A stretch of 64,000 nt of DNA from Candidatus Bathyarchaeota archaeon (GTDB lineage: Archaea; Thermoproteota; Bathyarchaeia; Bathyarchaeales; Bathycorpusculaceae), in the NCBI GenBank assembly GCA_963715865.1, contig OY970280.1, positions 1,856,001 through 1,920,000 on the forward strand, read 5' to 3'. The translations under genes were made by a program, and so were the position numbers. Below the pieces are notes generated by a model. The model made no database searches, was not told the DNA's origin, and saw only the letters and a list, made by a program, of their open reading frames with translations. Shown here piece after piece: positions 14,762 through 22,927 of this stretch; the first letter of the stretch is position 1; the number at the start of each line of letters is the position of its first letter.

Positions 14762-16171
14762 TTATTTCTTGTTTGTTAGGTATTCGTGCATTGCTTTTGC
14801 TGCGCGTTTGCCTGCTCCCATTGCGCTGATGACTGTTGCTGCCCCTGTTGCGACGTCTCCGCCTGCGTAAACTCCGTCTAAGCTTGTTTTGCCAACTTCG
14901 TTGACGCATATTGTTCCGTGTCTTGGGTCGCTTTGCAAGCCGTCTGTTGTTCGCTGTATGATTGGGTTTGGTGTTTGACCGATGGCGACGATTACTGTGT
15001 CAACGTCCATTGTGAATTCTGAGCCTGGAATTTCTTTTACTCCACGTCTGCCTTTTGCATCTGGCTCGCAGAGTTCCATTGCGATGCATTTCATGCTTTT
15101 AACCCAGCCTTTCTCGTCGCCGTAAAACTCGAGTGGTGCAGCAAGGAACTTGCAGACTAAGCCTTCTTCTTCCGCGTTTTCGATTTCTTCGTGTCTTGCT
15201 GGCAACTCTGTACGTGAGCGTCTGTAGAGTAAGCATACGTCTGAGCCAAGCCGCATGCTGCTTCTTGCGCAGTCCATAGCAACGTTTCCGCCGCCGATGA
15301 CGACTACGTGTTTGCCTATGCGTATTGGAGTGTCGTATTCTGGGAATTGGAATGCTTTCATGAGGTTAACGCGTATTAGGAATTCGTTAGCTGAGTAGAT
15401 TCCGCCAAGGTTTTCTCCTGGGCAACCGGTGAACTGTGGCAAGCCTGCGCCGCTACCGATGAATACTGCTTCGTAACCGTCCTTCATCAATTCTGGAATA
15501 GTGTGAATCCTTCCAACTAGGTTGCCTAGTCGCAAGTCAACGCCAAGTTTCTGGATGTAAGCGACCTCATTTTGTACGATTGCTTTTGGTAAACGGAACT
15601 CTGGAATACCATACGACAGCACTCCTCCGCCAACGTGCAAAGCCTCAAACATTGTAACGTCATGACCAAGCTTAACCAAGTCAGCAGCAGCCGTTAATCC
15701 AGCTGGACCTGCACCGACAATTGCTATTTTTTTGCCTGTTGGTGGAGCTTTCTCTGGAATCTGAGAACCATTGTCACGTTCCCAGTCTGCAAGAAAACGT
15801 TCTAAGCGTCCGATGCTGATTGGGTCACCCATTTTTCCGACGACACATTTAGCTTGGCATTGCACTTCTTGAGGGCAAACTCTTCCGCAAACAGCGGGCA
15901 ACGCATTCTTCGCCTTTATGAGAGCAATGCCTTCAGCATACTTCTTTTCTTTAATCAGCTTAATGAACGCTGGAATAGGAACATCCACAGGACAACCAGT
16001 TATACATTGAGGCTTAGGACACTGCAAACAACGATTAGCTTCTTCAAGCGCTTCAGCTTCAGTGTAACCTAAAGCAACTTCATTGAAGTTTTTAGCCCTT
16101 ACTTTTGGATCTTGCTTAGCCATTTCAACGGCTTTCTTGTTTAATTTTGGTTTAGGCTTAACTTCCGCCAC
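14762..16171 (-). CDS. nfnB: NfnB/SudA-type (GltD-like) bifurcating transhydrogenase large subunit
   Basis: EANRCLQC...CITGCP, CGRVCPQE, GAGPAGL, GGGNVAMD; GTG start 8 nt after GGAGG; no gltB nearby. Confidence 0.88.
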   Translation of the reverse strand: MAEVKPKPKLNKKAVEMAKQDPKVRAKNFNEVALGYTEAEALEEANRCLQCPKPQCITGCPVDVPIPAFIKLIKEKKYAEGIALIKAKNALPAVCGRVCPQEVQCQAKCVVGKMGDPISIGRLERFLADWERDNGSQIPEKAPPTGKKIAIVGAGPAGLTAAADLVKLGHDVTMFEALHVGGGVLSYGIPEFRLPKAIVQNEVAYIQKLGVDLRLGNLVGRIHTIPELMKDGYEAVFIGSGAGLPQFTGCPGENLGGIYSANEFLIRVNLMKAFQFPEYDTPIRIGKHVVVIGGGNVAMDCARSSMRLGSDVCLLYRRSRTELPARHEEIENAEEEGLVCKFLAAPLEFYGDEKGWVKSMKCIAMELCEPDAKGRRGVKEIPGSEFTMDVDTVIVAIGQTPNPIIQRTTDGLQSDPRHGTICVNEVGKTSLDGVYAGGDVATGAATVISAMGAGKRAAKAMHEYLTNKK

Positions 16172-16997
16172 ACTTACAACCTCCACGCATTTCCCACAAT
16201 ACTGAACTTAACCTTTCTTCAGGAAGCATTGTGCGCTGACGCAAAATCAACTGGTCGAAATCGGTTTGGTGACCATCAAATTCTGGTCCATCAATGCAAC
16301 CGAACTTCATTTTGCCGCCAACTGAAACTCGGCATACTCCGCACATGCCCATGCCATCAATCATTATAGGCGTTAAAGTTACAACTGTTGGAATGCCATA
16401 AGGCTTTGTGATTTCGCTAACATCCTTCATCAGGATAACTGGACCCATAACGATGCAGCGGTCAAACTTTTCCTTCTTCAGCAGGTCCTTGAGGAAGTCT
16501 AATCCTTTGTAGCCTTTTGAACCGTCATCTGTTGCTATGTAAACTTTGTCGCTCATGGCTTTAGCTTCGTCTTCCATCATTATGAACTCCTTTGTCCTAG
16601 CGCCGAGAATTGTGGTTACTTTGTTGCCTGCTGCTTTCATGGCTTTGACCTGTAACAGCAACGGCGCAATCATCACGCTTCCGCCGACACAGAGGACTTT
16701 GCCGAAGTTTTTGACTTCAGACGGATTGCCAAGTGGACCTGTAACGTTATCGATGCATTCGCCTTCGTTTAGTAAGCCAAGCGCTTTTGTGGTTTTGCCG
16801 ACTTCATGGAAAGCAAACGATACTGTTCCTTTCGCTCTGTCGCATCCGCATATTGTCAGGGGTATTCGTTCGCCTGCTTTGCCGTTTATGACTATTACGA
16901 ATTGTCCAACTTGCGATTTAGCTGCAATGTCGGAAGCTTCAACTTCAAACAGCTTAATTTTTGGAACTAGTTCTTTTTTAGTTACTATTTTGTACGT
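16158..16997 (-). CDS. nfnA: NfnA/SudB-type small subunit (FAD, [2Fe-2S]); predicted ACG start
   Basis: Frame is open from 16997: (T/M)YKIVTKKELVPKIKLFEV...GQFVIV..GERIPLT...GPLGNP...DGMGMCGVCRV...CIDGPEF; 279 aa; the ORF track misses the first 107 codons. Confidence 0.85.
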   Translation of the reverse strand, partial: TYKIVTKKELVPKIKLFEVEASDIAAKSQVGQFVIVINGKAGERIPLTICGCDRAKGTVSFAFHEVGKTTKALGLLNEGECIDNVTGPLGNPSEVKNFGKVLCVGGSVMIAPLLLQVKAMKAAGNKVTTILGARTKEFIMMEDEAKAMSDKVYIATDDGSKGYKGLDFLKDLLKKEKFDRCIVMGPVILMKDVSEITKPYGIPTVVTLTPIMIDGMGMCGVCRVSVGGKMKFGCIDGPEFDGHQTDFDQLILRQRTMLPEERLSSVLWEMRGGCKCGGS

Positions 16998-18229
16998 TTT
17001 GCTTTCGCCTCCACAGCTATTTCACGTCTTGGTAACGCTGAAATTTTCTTATAGAAAGCATCCAGTTTCTGATTGAAGTCGCCAGCAACTCTGGGTGACT
17101 CCTCATAAAGTTCGAATCGGTCAAGCAGATTCTTCTTTTTCAACACATTCAATAACACGCCCAAGTTGCGTTCTGCAGTGTCTTTGCCTTCTTGAAGCTT
17201 GCAATCTTGTGCTGAGCAGACCACTGCCATTACACCGTCGAAACCGCAGTTTAACGCGTTGACGACGTGAACTGGATCTAAGGATTTGAAGCATGGAACT
17301 TCAAGGGCTAACACGTTTTTGCCTGCAAACGCGCTGTTAGGGTTGTCTAAGGCTGAGAATTCTGACCATTGGCAAACGAACGCAAGAACTGCTGGACCGT
17401 GGTTTTTAGCTTTCAGTTGTGCAATTGAATTCCCATAACGGTTTACTACGTTTTCAAACTCGAAGCCTTTCACTTGAATAGCGTGATGTGGACAAACCAG
17501 TTGGCATGCGCCACAGCCGACGCATTTCTCTTCGTTTACTTTTGGAGTGGCAAACGATTCAAACTCAAGTGCTTTATATGGGCAGATGAATATGCATTTG
17601 TCACAGCCCACGCATTCTTGAACATCATAAACCGCTTTGCGGGAGAACTTTACTATTCTAACTGCGTTTTCATCGAAACCTAATTGTTTGAGGACATTTC
17701 TGGCTAAAACGAGTCTTCGAGTGTTTATTTTTGTGCCTTCTTTATAGCGGCAGAATGGATCTTCACATTGAATAGAAACAATGTTTTTTACGCCTGAATT
17801 CAGCGTATCAAAAATAAAGTCGGTTGGCACTCTGCCTGAACATGGCAAACGCAACGCAATGTACTTGCCAACCTTTAACCCTTGCTCCTTAAGGATATCT
17901 TGGACTTCGCCTGTGGAGGGCGAGTTTCCTCGGCACATTAAAACAAGCGTGTCAGCGCCACTTTTGGCTTTTGCACGTGCCTGTTTAACGTAGTTTGATA
18001 GATTATCGTAAGTGTAATATTGCGTTTTAATGGCTGAAACTGGGCAAGCACTGTAGCATATACCGCAGACTTGGCAGTCTTGAGTGTTAACTTCCACTTT
18101 TCCGGTTGAGTCGCGTTTTATGGCTTCATAAGGGCAGATTGATTGGCAAACATAACATCGGCTACATAAATCTTGATCGATTTCCACTACAGCGAGACAT
18201 TTTTCACTCATTCTGAAACCTCTTTTCAT
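16985..18229 (-). CDS. Polyferredoxin with two MvhD/FlpD-like [2Fe-2S] domains (Fd-MvhD-Fd-MvhD)
   Basis: Four CxxCxxCxxxCP motifs; two MvhD-like Cys sets (LMCRG/LPCSGR/QCEDPFC and FVCQWS/VPCFK/VCSAQDC). Confidence 0.85.
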   Translation of the reverse strand: MKRGFRMSEKCLAVVEIDQDLCSRCYVCQSICPYEAIKRDSTGKVEVNTQDCQVCGICYSACPVSAIKTQYYTYDNLSNYVKQARAKAKSGADTLVLMCRGNSPSTGEVQDILKEQGLKVGKYIALRLPCSGRVPTDFIFDTLNSGVKNIVSIQCEDPFCRYKEGTKINTRRLVLARNVLKQLGFDENAVRIVKFSRKAVYDVQECVGCDKCIFICPYKALEFESFATPKVNEEKCVGCGACQLVCPHHAIQVKGFEFENVVNRYGNSIAQLKAKNHGPAVLAFVCQWSEFSALDNPNSAFAGKNVLALEVPCFKSLDPVHVVNALNCGFDGVMAVVCSAQDCKLQEGKDTAERNLGVLLNVLKKKNLLDRFELYEESPRVAGDFNQKLDAFYKKISALPRREIAVEAKAKRTK

Positions 18230-18418
18230 ACACCGCTGCTACTTTAAACTGTAAGCATGTTAAGATGCTGGCTTAAAGCTTTTGAAAGCATGAAAAGGGT
18301 TTTAGAATGATATAATCCTTTCTCTAAAGTTTCTGCAATATCTATATATTTTAGTTGGCATCATTTGCGCTTCCTCAGAACCTTTTGACCTTCAAAGAAC
18401 GTAGAATCTAAAGATAGG

Positions 18419-18480
18419 AAAAAGAGGGTTTTGCGGGTGATATCTCCACTTGGGGCTGGGTTCAAATCCCCCCTACACCA
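18419..18480. repeat. Copy A of a ~60-nt intergenic element
   Basis: Core 18438-18467 matches 41890-41919 at 24/30 with no gaps; shared flank AAAAGAGGG.TTTTG. Confidence 0.7.
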
Positions 18481-18566
18481 TTATCGCCTTAATGGAGTTG
18501 TTTTTAGTTTTAGTCGGGAATTGGTAGTTCAACTAAGCTTTCAAAGCGGAAAAAGAAAAACGAGAT

Positions 18567-18845
18567 TCACTCGGATTTCTTGAATTGCTCACAGATTGAG
18601 CGAGAGGGATCAGTTTGCCAGAGCAATTGTATTCTCGTTTTACAACGTTTACATTGTATCAGAGCACCTTCAAGTTTTTCATAGCCAAACTCAGAGTAGC
18701 TTTTCGGGTTGTCCGGTGAAATAAGATTCCCACATTTGGGGCAGTCAAATGAGTTGGCGTCTCTTGAAACAGGAGAAGCTTTGATCTTGCCTTCCCTTCT
18801 TAGCTCGTCTATTACTACCACGAAATCCGCTATGGGTTGTTTCAT
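18567..18845 (-). CDS. Small zinc-ribbon protein
   Basis: CPKCG and CKRC pairs in 92 aa. Confidence 0.7.
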   Translation of the reverse strand: MKQPIADFVVVIDELRREGKIKASPVSRDANSFDCPKCGNLISPDNPKSYSEFGYEKLEGALIQCKRCKTRIQLLWQTDPSRSICEQFKKSE

Positions 18846-18989
18846 AACTCACGCCTCGATGGTAACACAACAAAGAAGTTATTTTGGTTTCTCAAAAATA
18901 TTTCTGGAAAAAGTGCCAGAATAAATTGAAATAGAAAGGGGTTATGCACGGGTGAAATCGCCACCGCAACTAGATATAATCCTTTCTTT

Positions 18990-19931
18990 CTATTTCCTAT
19001 AATAAGGTCGTCGGATGTAGCTGTAGGCTTCGAGGGCTGCGGTGATGCCTTGCCCCACAGCTGTCCCAACTTGCTTGACTGGATGGTTTGTTACGTCTCC
19101 AGCGGCGAAAACTCCCAGCAGATTTGTCTGTTGGCGAATGTCAATTTTAATGTATCCATGTTCATCTATTTCTATTCCAGAGGCTTTTGCGATTTGGCTG
19201 TTGGGTGCTTCGCCGACTTGGACAAAAACTGCATCCACGGGTAGTTCAGTTATTTGTTGAGTCAAGTTGTTTTTCAGTATGACTGCTTTTACTTGTCTGT
19301 CGCCTTTTATTTCTTGAATCTCAGTGTTCCATAGAATGTTCACGTTACCTTTTGATGCAATGTCTGTGACTAAAGATTCTTCAGCTCTGAATGCTTGCCT
19401 TCTATGAGTTACGGTAACTTGTGAAGCGATGCCTGAAAGATAAAGGGTAGTTATGCAAGCGGAGTTTCCACCGCCAACAATAAGCACTTTTTTGCCCTTG
19501 AAAAATGGGCCATCGCAAACGCCACAGTAACTTACGCCTTTACCTCGGAATTCTTTTTCCCCTTTTACGCCGATTTCCTTGTAATGTGAACCAGCGGAAA
19601 ATATTATTGCTTTAGCTTCATAGGTTGCTTTTGAAGTTTTAACAATTTTCTTTTCACCCGTAAGCTCTAATTCAGTTACAGGTTCCAAGTCGTGAATGGC
19701 TGCGCCAAGTTTTCTGCAGTGCGAAGTCATTTTTTCCGCAAGTTCTCCACCGCTAATCTCTGCAAATCCTGGATAATTCACTACTGTTGGAGCATCAGAG
19801 ATTGTTCCTCCAGCAAACTTCTCATCTAAAATTAGAGTTTTTAGTCCGCTTCGAACGGCGTAAATTCCAGCTGCCAAACCAGCGGAACCAGCACCGATTA
19901 TTATGATATCCCAGTTCTCCATAATGTGCAT
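18990..19931 (-). CDS. trxB: Thioredoxin reductase
   Basis: GAGSAGL, GVSYCGVCDG (CxxC), GGGNSA, FAAGDV. Confidence 0.92.
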   Translation of the reverse strand: MHIMENWDIIIIGAGSAGLAAGIYAVRSGLKTLILDEKFAGGTISDAPTVVNYPGFAEISGGELAEKMTSHCRKLGAAIHDLEPVTELELTGEKKIVKTSKATYEAKAIIFSAGSHYKEIGVKGEKEFRGKGVSYCGVCDGPFFKGKKVLIVGGGNSACITTLYLSGIASQVTVTHRRQAFRAEESLVTDIASKGNVNILWNTEIQEIKGDRQVKAVILKNNLTQQITELPVDAVFVQVGEAPNSQIAKASGIEIDEHGYIKIDIRQQTNLLGVFAAGDVTNHPVKQVGTAVGQGITAALEAYSYIRRPYYRK

Positions 19932-20776: not shown

Positions 20777-22597
20777 TTGAAGGTGCAGATTTTGGCAAGG
20801 TACAGGTGCACAGTTTGCAATTACGTTTATGATGAAGCAAAAGAAGGAAAGAAGTTTAGTGATTTGCCTAAAGAATGGGTTTGTCCAGTTTGTGGAGCGC
20901 CTAAAACAGCTTTTGTGCTGTTAACTGAACAAGCCGAAGAGAAAAAGGCAGAGCATACAGTTTCAGAAGTTCTAATAAACCAGATCGCTGAGTGGGGTGT
21001 CCAATACGTTTTCGGTATTCCCGGAACCTCAACCTTAGGCGTTGTGGATGCCATACGAAAAACCAATGGCAAAGTCAAGTACTTGCAGGTTCGACATGAG
21101 CAGACAGCAGCGTTTATGGCTTCAGCTTATGGGAAATTGACTGGACACGTTGCTGCTTGTTTAGGTGTTTCTGGTCCAGGAGCAACGAACTTGGCCACTG
21201 GCTTGTATGATGCGAAGTTAGATCATTCGCCAGTTTTGGCTTTAACTGGGTTGGTGGCTAGGCAACTGATTGGTCCAGGTTCAACACAGGAGATTGATCA
21301 GTACTCTTTTTTTGAGCCAATTTGCGTTTTTAACAAGATTTTGATGTCTGAGGACCAGACTACTATGCTGGCTACGTTGGCAATTAAGCATGCACTTTTG
21401 GACCAAGGCGTTTCGCATATTGGGATTCCTAATGACGTGCAGAAGTTGCCTTATGAAGCGGAGATTTTGCCGTTTGAGGGCAGAATGCCTAATCTTGCGT
21501 ATGGACAGGAAGAATGGGTGGTCGAGAAGGCAGCGAAGGTTGTTGACCAAGCGGTTAGACCTGTGATTCTTGCGGGTTTCGGAGCGAGAGGGCAAGGCAA
21601 TAAGCTGTTAAAGTTGGCATCGAAAATTTCTGCGCCGATTATTGCAACTTTCAGAGCTAAAGGCGTTGTTGATGAGCATGAATCGTTGTACGTGGGTTGT
21701 CATGGTGGTATTGGTTCAACTGCCTCGGCGGAGCTTATGCAAAAAGCGGATTTGCTTATAGCTATTGGTTCTTCGTTTTCTGATCTATCGCAGATTCCAC
21801 AGAAGAAGACTGTGCAGATTGATATTAATCCGCTTATGATTGCGCGAAGATACCCTGTTGAGGTAGGATTGGTTGGCAACAGTGCAGTGCTAATCCCAAA
21901 GTTGACAGAGAAAATTCAGGAGAAACAGAACGCGGATTATTTGGCTGAGATTGCAAGGTTAAAGCAGGAATGGCTAAACCAACTGGAAAAAGAAGCCGAC
22001 GCAAATATGAAGCCGATTAGACCTCAGTACATAATCAAAGTTTTGAACGATAAAATTGCTGATGACGCAGTGATTTCTTTGGATGTGGGTGAAAACTGCT
22101 GGTGGTTCGGCAGGAACTTTATGATGCGCAAGTCACAGAAGATGGTGATGAGCGGCACTTTGGCTACAATGGGGTTTGGTTTGCCAGGCGCCATGGCTGC
22201 AGCACTTGCTTATCCCAATAGGCAGATTGTTTGTTTGACTGGTGATGGCGGCTTAACAATGGTTATGAGCGACTTTTTAACAGCTTTGAAGTACAAGTTG
22301 CCGGTTAAAGTTTTTGTCATGAACAATAAGCGTTTGGGAATGATTATGCAGGAGCAGAAGGTTGAGGGTTACGAAGACTGGCAAACCGACCTGTACGACT
22401 TTAGTTTTGCTGATTTTGCTGAGCATTCTGGTGGCTTAGGTATTAAGGTTACTGAGCCAAGCGAGCTTGAAGTAGCCGTTGATAAAGCGCTTTCAACTAC
22501 TAAGCCAACGATTGTTGATATCGATACTGACCCAAGAAGATTTTTCTATACCTACGACCACTCTATTAGTTCACAGGGTAAGTTGAAAAATGGATAA
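20777..22597 (+). CDS. Rubredoxin-fused TPP-dependent enzyme (pyruvate oxidase/decarboxylase-like)
   Basis: [11 protein letters not shown]...WVCPVCG rubredoxin; [21 protein letters not shown]...NN TPP motif. Confidence 0.9.
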
Positions 22598-22826: not shown

Positions 22827-22927
22827 TGGTAGCGGGGACTAGATTTGAACTAGTGATCTCTGGGTGTCTCCGAGCGACGAGCGCTCTTATGAGCCCAGCG
22901 GGTTAATCCTGGCTACCCCACCCCGCT
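22827..22927 (-). tRNA. tRNA-iMet(CAT) with 22-nt intron (22866-22887) and encoded CCA
   Basis: A1-U72 acceptor AGCGGGG/CCCCGCT, three G-C pairs in the anticodon stem, CTCATA|intron|A, T-arm ACTAG-TTCAAAT-CTAGT, BHB-like junction. Confidence 0.93.

Follow-up and report, generated by a model that had tools for sequence, protein, structure and literature searches.

Why would an operon for NfnAB (NfnSL), which is regarded as a self-contained heterodimer, begin with a gene for an additional iron-sulfur protein? This question is raised by the window analysed in this study, i.e., a stretch of 64,000 nucleotides (positions 1,856,001-1,920,000) of the single-contig 2.35-Mb genome of Candidatus Bathyarchaeota archaeon (contig OY970280.1). 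On its minus strand, the window carries a gene for a ferredoxin-MvhD-ferredoxin-MvhD protein, named g1 in the following, and next to it the genes for the small and large Nfn subunits, nfnA and nfnB. From sequence comparisons it is proposed, with a probability of about 50%, that g1 is a doubled MvhD-type adaptor wiring a specialised NfnAB to the MvhAG hydrogenase, probably with the H2/H+ couple in place of nicotinamide adenine dinucleotide (NAD(H)).

Bathyarchaeia belong to the most abundant archaea of peat and sediments, and their H2 and NADPH economy is inferred from genomes only; an H2-linked Nfn would alter those models. If the proposal is true, Nfn could be, like Hdr, a plug-in module for other redox enzymes.

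Gene layout and genomic context

The operon consists of the following genes:

16985-18229, minus strand: g1, open reading frame for the ferredoxin-MvhD-ferredoxin-MvhD protein; 414 amino acids (aa) from ATG 18229, 408 aa from ATG 18211
16158-16997, minus strand: nfnA, open reading frame for the small Nfn subunit (279 aa) with flavin adenine dinucleotide (FAD) and a [2Fe-2S] cluster; Pfam PF10418 and a match to 5jca_S
14762-16171, minus strand: nfnB, open reading frame for the large Nfn subunit with 2x[4Fe-4S], FAD, and an NADPH site; Pfam Fer4_20 and Pyr_redox_2 and a match to 4ylf_B

The initial annotation had described three overlapping minus-strand genes, and this was borne out, with overlaps of 13 nt between nfnA and g1 and 14 nt between nfnB and nfnA. 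ATG 18211 is the more likely start of g1 because most of its homologues are 407-408 aa long. For nfnB, initiation is most likely at GTG 16171 (469 aa), located 8 nt past a GGAGG, while the alternative GTG 16186 gives 474 aa. The close protein matches of g1 are named Candidatus Bathyarchaeia and come from peat, bog, and soil metagenomes; in the databases, its homologues are labelled only 'hydrogenase iron-sulfur subunit'.

No hdrA, hydrogenase, or gltB gene was found within the 64 kb, as the initial annotation had said of the surroundings of the operon, and all of these are encoded elsewhere in the genome. The regions at 449-462 kb and 907 kb contain NiFe hydrogenase genes, with mvhGA at 449-453 kb beside hdrCB, an HdrA with fused MvhD is encoded at 1.306 Mb, and a glutamate synthase domain is present at 86 kb. 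The genome has no free MvhD, its sole MvhD domain besides those of g1 being the one fused to HdrA, and nfnB is its sole Fer4_20 (NfnB/GltD-type) gene.

Architecture of the g1 protein

Pfam recognises four Fer4 stretches and two FlpD/MvhD (PF02662) stretches in g1, arranged as two consecutive ferredoxin-MvhD units:

18020-18187, minus strand: ferredoxin domain 1 (residues ~15-70), two CxxCxxCxxxC motifs (C22/25/28/32 and C52/55/58/62)
17660-17950, minus strand: MvhD-like domain 1 (residues ~94-190), Pfam FlpD, Cys 99, 130, 155, and 160
17465-17641, minus strand: ferredoxin domain 2 (residues ~197-255), C206/209/212/216 and C236/239/242/246
17033-17389, minus strand: MvhD-like domain 2 (residues 281-399), Pfam FlpD positions 1-122 of 123, Cys 286, 313, 338, and 343

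The four [4Fe-4S] motifs and the two MvhD-like domains with four Cys each, which had been read from the letters before, were thus confirmed, and all 24 of these Cys (16 in the four CxxCxxCxxxC ferredoxin motifs and 4 in each MvhD domain) are invariant across 17 full-length homologues of 27-64% identity. MvhD-like domain 1 has a match of 50.7 bits within its own genome, MvhD-like domain 2 matches 7bkb_F and 5odc_D in the PDB, and ferredoxin domain 1 resembles both the C-terminal ferredoxin domain of HdrA (8rvu_a residues 584-649) and polyferredoxins. The two halves of g1 are 28% identical to each other (E 2e-20), and the protein is thus an internal duplication of a ferredoxin-MvhD unit. Judged by homology, each half is a putative copy of the module formed by the HdrA C-terminal ferredoxin domain and MvhD, and g1 is therefore predicted to hold four [4Fe-4S] and two [2Fe-2S] clusters.

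The AlphaFold2 model of g1 reached a mean predicted local distance difference test score (pLDDT) of 85 and a predicted template modelling score (pTM) of 0.83. In a Foldseek search, its best PDB matches were all MvhD chains (5odc_D, 8rvu_F, and 7bkb_F; template modelling (TM) scores of 0.76-0.80 on target), headed by 5odc_D (TM 0.79 on target, probability 1.00), and no PDB chain spanned the entire model (TM on query ≤ 0.28). Some homologues (P0128, P0135, L143, and L144) carry a C-terminal extension of ~120 aa without a Pfam hit; in L144, the extended homologue sits between metF and two HdrA-like genes.

Conservation of the operon and paralogue specificity

The gene order g1-nfnA-nfnB is kept in all 12 same-genus loci and in all 80 Bathyarchaeia loci of the species-genome collection. 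In each of these 80 loci g1 is followed by nfnA and then by nfnB unless the contig ends, as is the case in 5 of them. Among more distant Bathyarchaeia loci, in which g1 is 37-64% identical, nfnA is next to g1 in 12 of 13, and it is the next gene for 112 of the 190 g1 family members. Within a 401-genome sample of the phylum, g1 is restricted to Bathyarchaeia (29 genomes).

The linkage is specific to one NfnAB paralogue. NfnB of the genus falls into two clades, of which the one at 86-95% identity always adjoins g1. The other one (62-66%) is encoded alone or behind a 712-715-aa HdrA-like-ferredoxin-MvhD fusion, and it is the only NfnB clade in the genomes G005, G007, G016, G017, and G024, which are devoid of g1. 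Linked and stand-alone Nfn copies also co-exist in single genomes, e.g., in G013, G014, G002, and G019. The neighbourhood survey of nfnAB thus revealed a linkage that is strongly conserved for one paralogue only.

NfnA, NfnB, and the NAD-domain loop

Both Nfn subunits are close to characterised enzymes. NfnB matches Thermotoga maritima NfnB (4ylf_B) over its full length (E 2e-166; Pfam Fer4_20 1e-42, Pyr_redox_2 3e-35). Residues 2-270 of NfnA align with Pyrococcus furiosus NfnI-S (5jca_S; E 2e-78), and in this alignment the PF10418 protein retains the 'ERIPLT' and 'DGMGMCGVCRV' segments. A difference was observed in the loop of its NAD domain:

16665-16685, minus strand: glycine loop GGSVMIA of the NfnA NAD domain (residues 105-111), from the alignment to 5jca_S and 4ylf_A

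In NfnA of P. furiosus and T. maritima, the small-subunit NAD(H) site has the canonical loop GGGVG(V/I)A; this loop is absent from NfnA of the window, in which Met109 replaces the last Gly. This position is occupied by Met, Trp, or Phe in every g1-linked NfnA tallied and by Met in two NfnA encoded downstream of HdrA-like-MvhD, whereas the 19 stand-alone NfnA of Bathyarchaeia all have Gly there. The substitution is retained over a deep clade, down to ~50% identity, and in the NfnA tree (a quick search, as was the g1 tree) the MvhD-linked and stand-alone copies are parted by one branch with 99% support in the Shimodaira-Hasegawa-like approximate likelihood ratio test (SH-aLRT).

In FNR-type NAD domains, the glycine loop packs against the dinucleotide pyrophosphate, and a bulky side chain at this site should disturb NAD(H) binding. 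With such a residue in the loop, NAD(H) is probably no longer the third substrate of this NfnAB. Moreover, the loop is the sole signature that separates MvhD-linked from stand-alone NfnA, which suggests that it is NAD(H), not ferredoxin, that was replaced.

Association with the Mvh hydrogenase

In four lineages, mvhG-mvhA(-hycI) is located directly upstream of g1 on the same strand. In G336, which belongs to a different order, a tight operon mvhG-mvhA-hycI-g1-nfnA-nfnB with overlapping junctions is present, and the order in G389 is mvhG-mvhA-g1-nfnA. Two loci of the same genus, L037 and L040, show the order trxR-mvhG-mvhA-g1-nfnA-nfnB, with mvhGA 85-90% identical to that of the genome studied here. 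Among the 80 Bathyarchaeia genome loci, mvhGA is found beside g1 in only two.

A metagenome scan additionally revealed a clade that is sister to g1 (32-36% identity), the named members of which are Dehalococcoidia and Chloroflexota. Its gene order is mvhG-mvhA-(receiver + NfnB-like + ferredoxin)-hycI-mvhD-g1like-metV-like. In a further Bathyarchaeia genome (G401; L133:4949-10968), hycI, a g1-like tandem ferredoxin-MvhD gene, metV, and metF are divergent from the adjoining mvhG-mvhA. This arrangement might encode an H2-linked reductase of methylene-tetrahydrofolate or -methanopterin that works without Hdr. In a quick maximum-likelihood tree of g1, the NfnAB-linked Bathyarchaeia clade (95% SH-aLRT) is set apart from the MetV/Mvh-linked clade (97%). 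Since mvhGA accompanies g1 in the four lineages, in the Chloroflexota sister clade, and in G401, the Mvh-type hydrogenase is the apparent common denominator of the g1 family, and its flavoenzyme partner varies. In the phylum sample, an MvhA orthologue is encoded by 27 of the 29 g1-positive genomes and by 14 of the 31 g1-negative Bathyarchaeia among those listed.

One Chloroflexota-type cluster (L194:1115-9219) comprises mvhG, mvhA, a gene for a 738-aa protein (receiver, NfnB-like flavoprotein, and ferredoxin), hycI, a free mvhD, a tandem ferredoxin-MvhD gene, and a MetV-like gene. It is followed by hyp genes, and metF is not adjacent.

Proposed mechanism

It is proposed that g1, NfnA, and NfnB, produced from overlapping genes, would form one module in which a specialised NfnAB paralogue has g1 as its third subunit. 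Via its predicted clusters, g1 would pass single electrons between the Nfn module and the MvhAG-type [NiFe]-hydrogenase, so that the H2/H+ couple, reached via g1, would take the place of NAD(H) as third substrate. The net reaction of such a complex would be approximately 2 NADPH + oxidised ferredoxin + 2 H+ <-> 2 NADP+ + reduced ferredoxin + H2. By Nernst calculation, the H+/H2 potential at ~10 Pa H2 is near -300 mV. This is close to the cellular NAD couple, and bifurcation of NADPH electrons to ferredoxin and protons, or the reverse, would therefore be thermodynamically plausible. As to the docking site of g1, the NfnA side may well be where it binds, a placement held at slightly short of even odds; the NfnB ferredoxin site is considered more tentatively.

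The initial annotation had suggested that the Fe-S protein might dock Nfn to an Hdr, Mvh, or Fdh complex. Mvh alone among these has direct support from synteny, i.e., mvhGA upstream of g1 in four lineages, and this part of the suggestion stands, with the restriction that Mvh is not universal. Its other idea, a dedicated Fe-S wire replacing free ferredoxin, found no specific evidence, and the NfnA loop signature points to NAD(H) instead.

Several points weigh against the proposed wiring of NfnAB to MvhAG. Two genomes, G084 (100% complete) and G413, encode g1-nfnAB and yielded no MvhA orthologue at E ≤ 1e-150, so that Mvh is not a universal partner of g1. In the genome studied here, mvhGA lies 1.4 Mb away with hdrCB, and HdrA has its own MvhD, i.e., the hydrogenase already has a canonical partner. 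Longer fused forms of g1, including a g1-Nfn fusion, were not found, in a search that constitutes weak evidence. The change from Gly to Met predicts altered NAD(H) binding and does not prove it. Lastly, because the loop change and the linkage each fall on a single branch of the NfnA tree, they may represent one ancestral event and not repeated co-evolution.

Alternative explanations

An unlikely alternative has g1 sitting as a bound polyferredoxin on NfnB, at its ferredoxin site, where it would replace soluble ferredoxin as acceptor of the low-potential electrons and feed them to various partners without the need for a hydrogenase. The ferredoxin domains of g1 are typical 2x[4Fe-4S] units of polyferredoxin-like appearance, most genomes are without adjacent mvhGA, and the two genomes without an MvhA orthologue also agree with it. 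This alternative leaves unexplained why both halves contain an MvhD domain, a fold known only for linking hydrogenase or formate dehydrogenase to HdrA, why the change in the linked paralogue is located in the NAD loop of NfnA, and why mvhGA accompanies g1 in four lineages as well as in the sister clade from Chloroflexota. Less probable still is docking of g1-NfnAB on HdrA or HdrBC, by which NADPH oxidation would be coupled to heterodisulfide-type chemistry, as may be compared with the HdrA::NfnB fusions of anaerobic methanotrophic archaea of group 1 (ANME-1). The homology of the g1 modules to the HdrA C-terminal ferredoxin domain and MvhD is in line with such docking, as are the HdrA proteins with NfnB insertions in ANME-1 (PMC9012536), the occurrence of the same NfnA clade behind the 712-715-aa HdrA-like-ferredoxin-MvhD fusion in G030 and G023, and the hdrC-like and hdrB-sized genes located 1.2 kb downstream of nfnB in G040. 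Yet neither the window nor most other loci have hdr genes beside g1, HdrA of this genome already has a fused MvhD, and the further redox enzyme that adjoins g1, where there is one, is mvhGA.

The three genes might also be merely co-transcribed, with NfnAB an ordinary NADH/ferredoxin/NADP+ transhydrogenase and g1 serving another enzyme. That NfnA and NfnB are full-length and near characterised enzymes, and that this is the sole Nfn of the genome, speak for it. It is made very improbable by a gene order held across orders down to 37% g1 identity, by the overlapping gene junctions, by the restriction of the linkage to one Nfn paralogue even where linked and stand-alone copies share a genome (G013, G014, G002, and G019), and by the non-canonical NAD loop.

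Relation to known systems

Flavin-based bifurcating enzymes are recognised in four families only (PMC12318220), and full-text literature searching brought up no paper that describes MvhD assembled with NfnAB or Mvh with Nfn. It is conceivable, though rather less than probable, that MvhAG-(Fd-MvhD)2-NfnAB (Fd = ferredoxin) represents an undescribed class of electron-bifurcating [NiFe]-hydrogenase, in which the NfnB flavin would split NADPH electrons between ferredoxin and protons, and trace-pressure H2 would play the role of NAD+/NADH. Were this true, Bathyarchaeia would gain a direct link between the H2, NADPH, and ferredoxin pools that does without Hdr.

Compared with NfnAB/NfnSL of T. maritima (4YLF) and P. 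furiosus (NfnI, 5JCA), the operon encodes full-length orthologues with the same domains and cluster motifs, including a [2Fe-2S] segment of the Asp-plus-three-Cys type ('DGMGMCGVCRV...C'). It differs in adding a third subunit, predicted to carry six clusters, and in the NfnA loop (GGSVMIA versus GGGVG(I/V)A). Stand-alone Bathyarchaeia NfnA also form a clade separate from the NfnA studied here.

MvhD/VhuD is the [2Fe-2S] connector of MvhAGD-HdrABC and FdhAB-MvhD-HdrABC (5ODC, 7BKB, and 8RVU). Each MvhD-like domain of g1 shares with it the Pfam family, the fold, and four conserved Cys, and the ferredoxin domain preceding MvhD in g1 resembles the HdrA domain that MvhD contacts. In the published Mvh-Hdr structure, as summarised in PMC9012536, the C-terminal ferredoxin domain of HdrA receives electrons from MvhD. 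Unlike MvhD/VhuD, g1 is doubled, fused to two ferredoxin domains, and co-encoded with NfnAB; it is neither co-encoded with nor fused to HdrA, as no hdrA is present in the window.

An Nfn module is likewise combined with electron-transfer parts of the Hdr/MvhD type in the HdrA::NfnB fusions known in ANME-1 (Chadwick et al. 2022, PMC9012536) and in HdrA-like-MvhD-NfnAB clusters found in other Bathyarchaeia, and NfnA of the latter clusters belongs to the same clade as g1-linked NfnA and has the same loop change. The difference is that g1 lacks the HdrA flavoprotein domain and contains, twice, only its C-terminal ferredoxin-like domain and MvhD. In one such cluster (L139:4006-15001, genome G030), genes for an HdrA-like protein (446 aa), an HdrA-like-ferredoxin-MvhD fusion (712 aa), nfnA, and nfnB are on one strand, with hdrB, hdrC, hdrA-mvhD, and mvhA on the opposite one.

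Besides the HdrA::NfnB fusions of ANME-1, HdrABC-MvhD-MetVF (discussed in PMC5736913 and PMC9586279) is one of the two nearest precedents. Bfu-type NfnABC and the bifurcating hydrogenases HydABC and NiFe-HydABCSL also couple NAD(P)H, ferredoxin, and sometimes H2 in one complex; they are built from unrelated parts, and the bifurcating flavin here would be the FAD of NfnB. Pfam detected no NuoE-like or NuoF-like domains, which mark Bfu-type NfnABC, in the three operon proteins. The 'bifurcating plug' WorABCSL was considered as a close precedent and set aside, as it belongs to the Bfu family.

The start codon of nfnA

The nfnA frame is open from 17021 and contains no ATG, GTG, or TTG before 16676. 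At the position where relatives start nfnA, an ACG is present (16995-16997), 13 nt inside g1, and it is preceded by the following element:

17008-17012, minus strand: GGAGG, resembling a Shine-Dalgarno box, 10 nt ahead of the nfnA ACG and kept in relatives

The codon at this position was tallied over 101 distinct Bathyarchaeia g1/nfnA junctions:

ACG: 61/101 junctions
ATG: 29/101 junctions
GTG: 6/101 junctions
TTG: 2/101 junctions
CTG: 1/101 junctions
ATT or ACT, each directly past an ATG: 2/101 junctions

The same GGAGG precedes the start position in all of the junctions tallied, and the ACG therefore appears to serve as a conserved non-canonical start or for reinitiation in coupling with the translation of g1. 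A programmed -1 frameshift fusing g1 to NfnA was rejected, as g1 stops ahead of the ACG in L007, and other genomes have ATG, GTG, TTG, or CTG at this position behind the same GGAGG.

Neighbouring genes

Upstream of g1, on the same strand, a thioredoxin reductase gene (trxR, 18990-19931) encodes the canonical CxxC (CGVC) and HRRxxxR (HRRQAFR) motifs. As a fourth subunit it was rejected; its place upstream of g1, at a distance of ~100 nt in this family, is also kept in some other lineages, not in distant ones, and it is treated as a neighbour. An open frame of 712 aa in G419 that combines TrxR with g1 was discarded as a fusion too, since it crosses a scaffold gap filled with N.

Between trxR and g1, the intergenic stretch (18230-18989) measures 760 nt in this genome versus ~100 nt in most relatives. 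It holds an open reading frame for a 92-aa zinc-ribbon protein (18567-18845) without a Pfam hit and, on the plus strand near 18470, a tRNA-like 3' end (GGGTTCAAATCC) that was not called by ARAGORN or Rfam. In L037 and L040, the same position is filled by mvhG-mvhA. Farther away, ARAGORN calls a 101-nt 'tRNA-???' with a four-base anticodon at 22827-22927, for which Rfam gives no support. A gene for a rubredoxin fused, according to Pfam, to a thiamine pyrophosphate (TPP) enzyme of the pyruvate-oxidase/acetolactate-synthase type is located at 20777-22597; its placement next to trxR, in divergent orientation, is conserved in many relatives.

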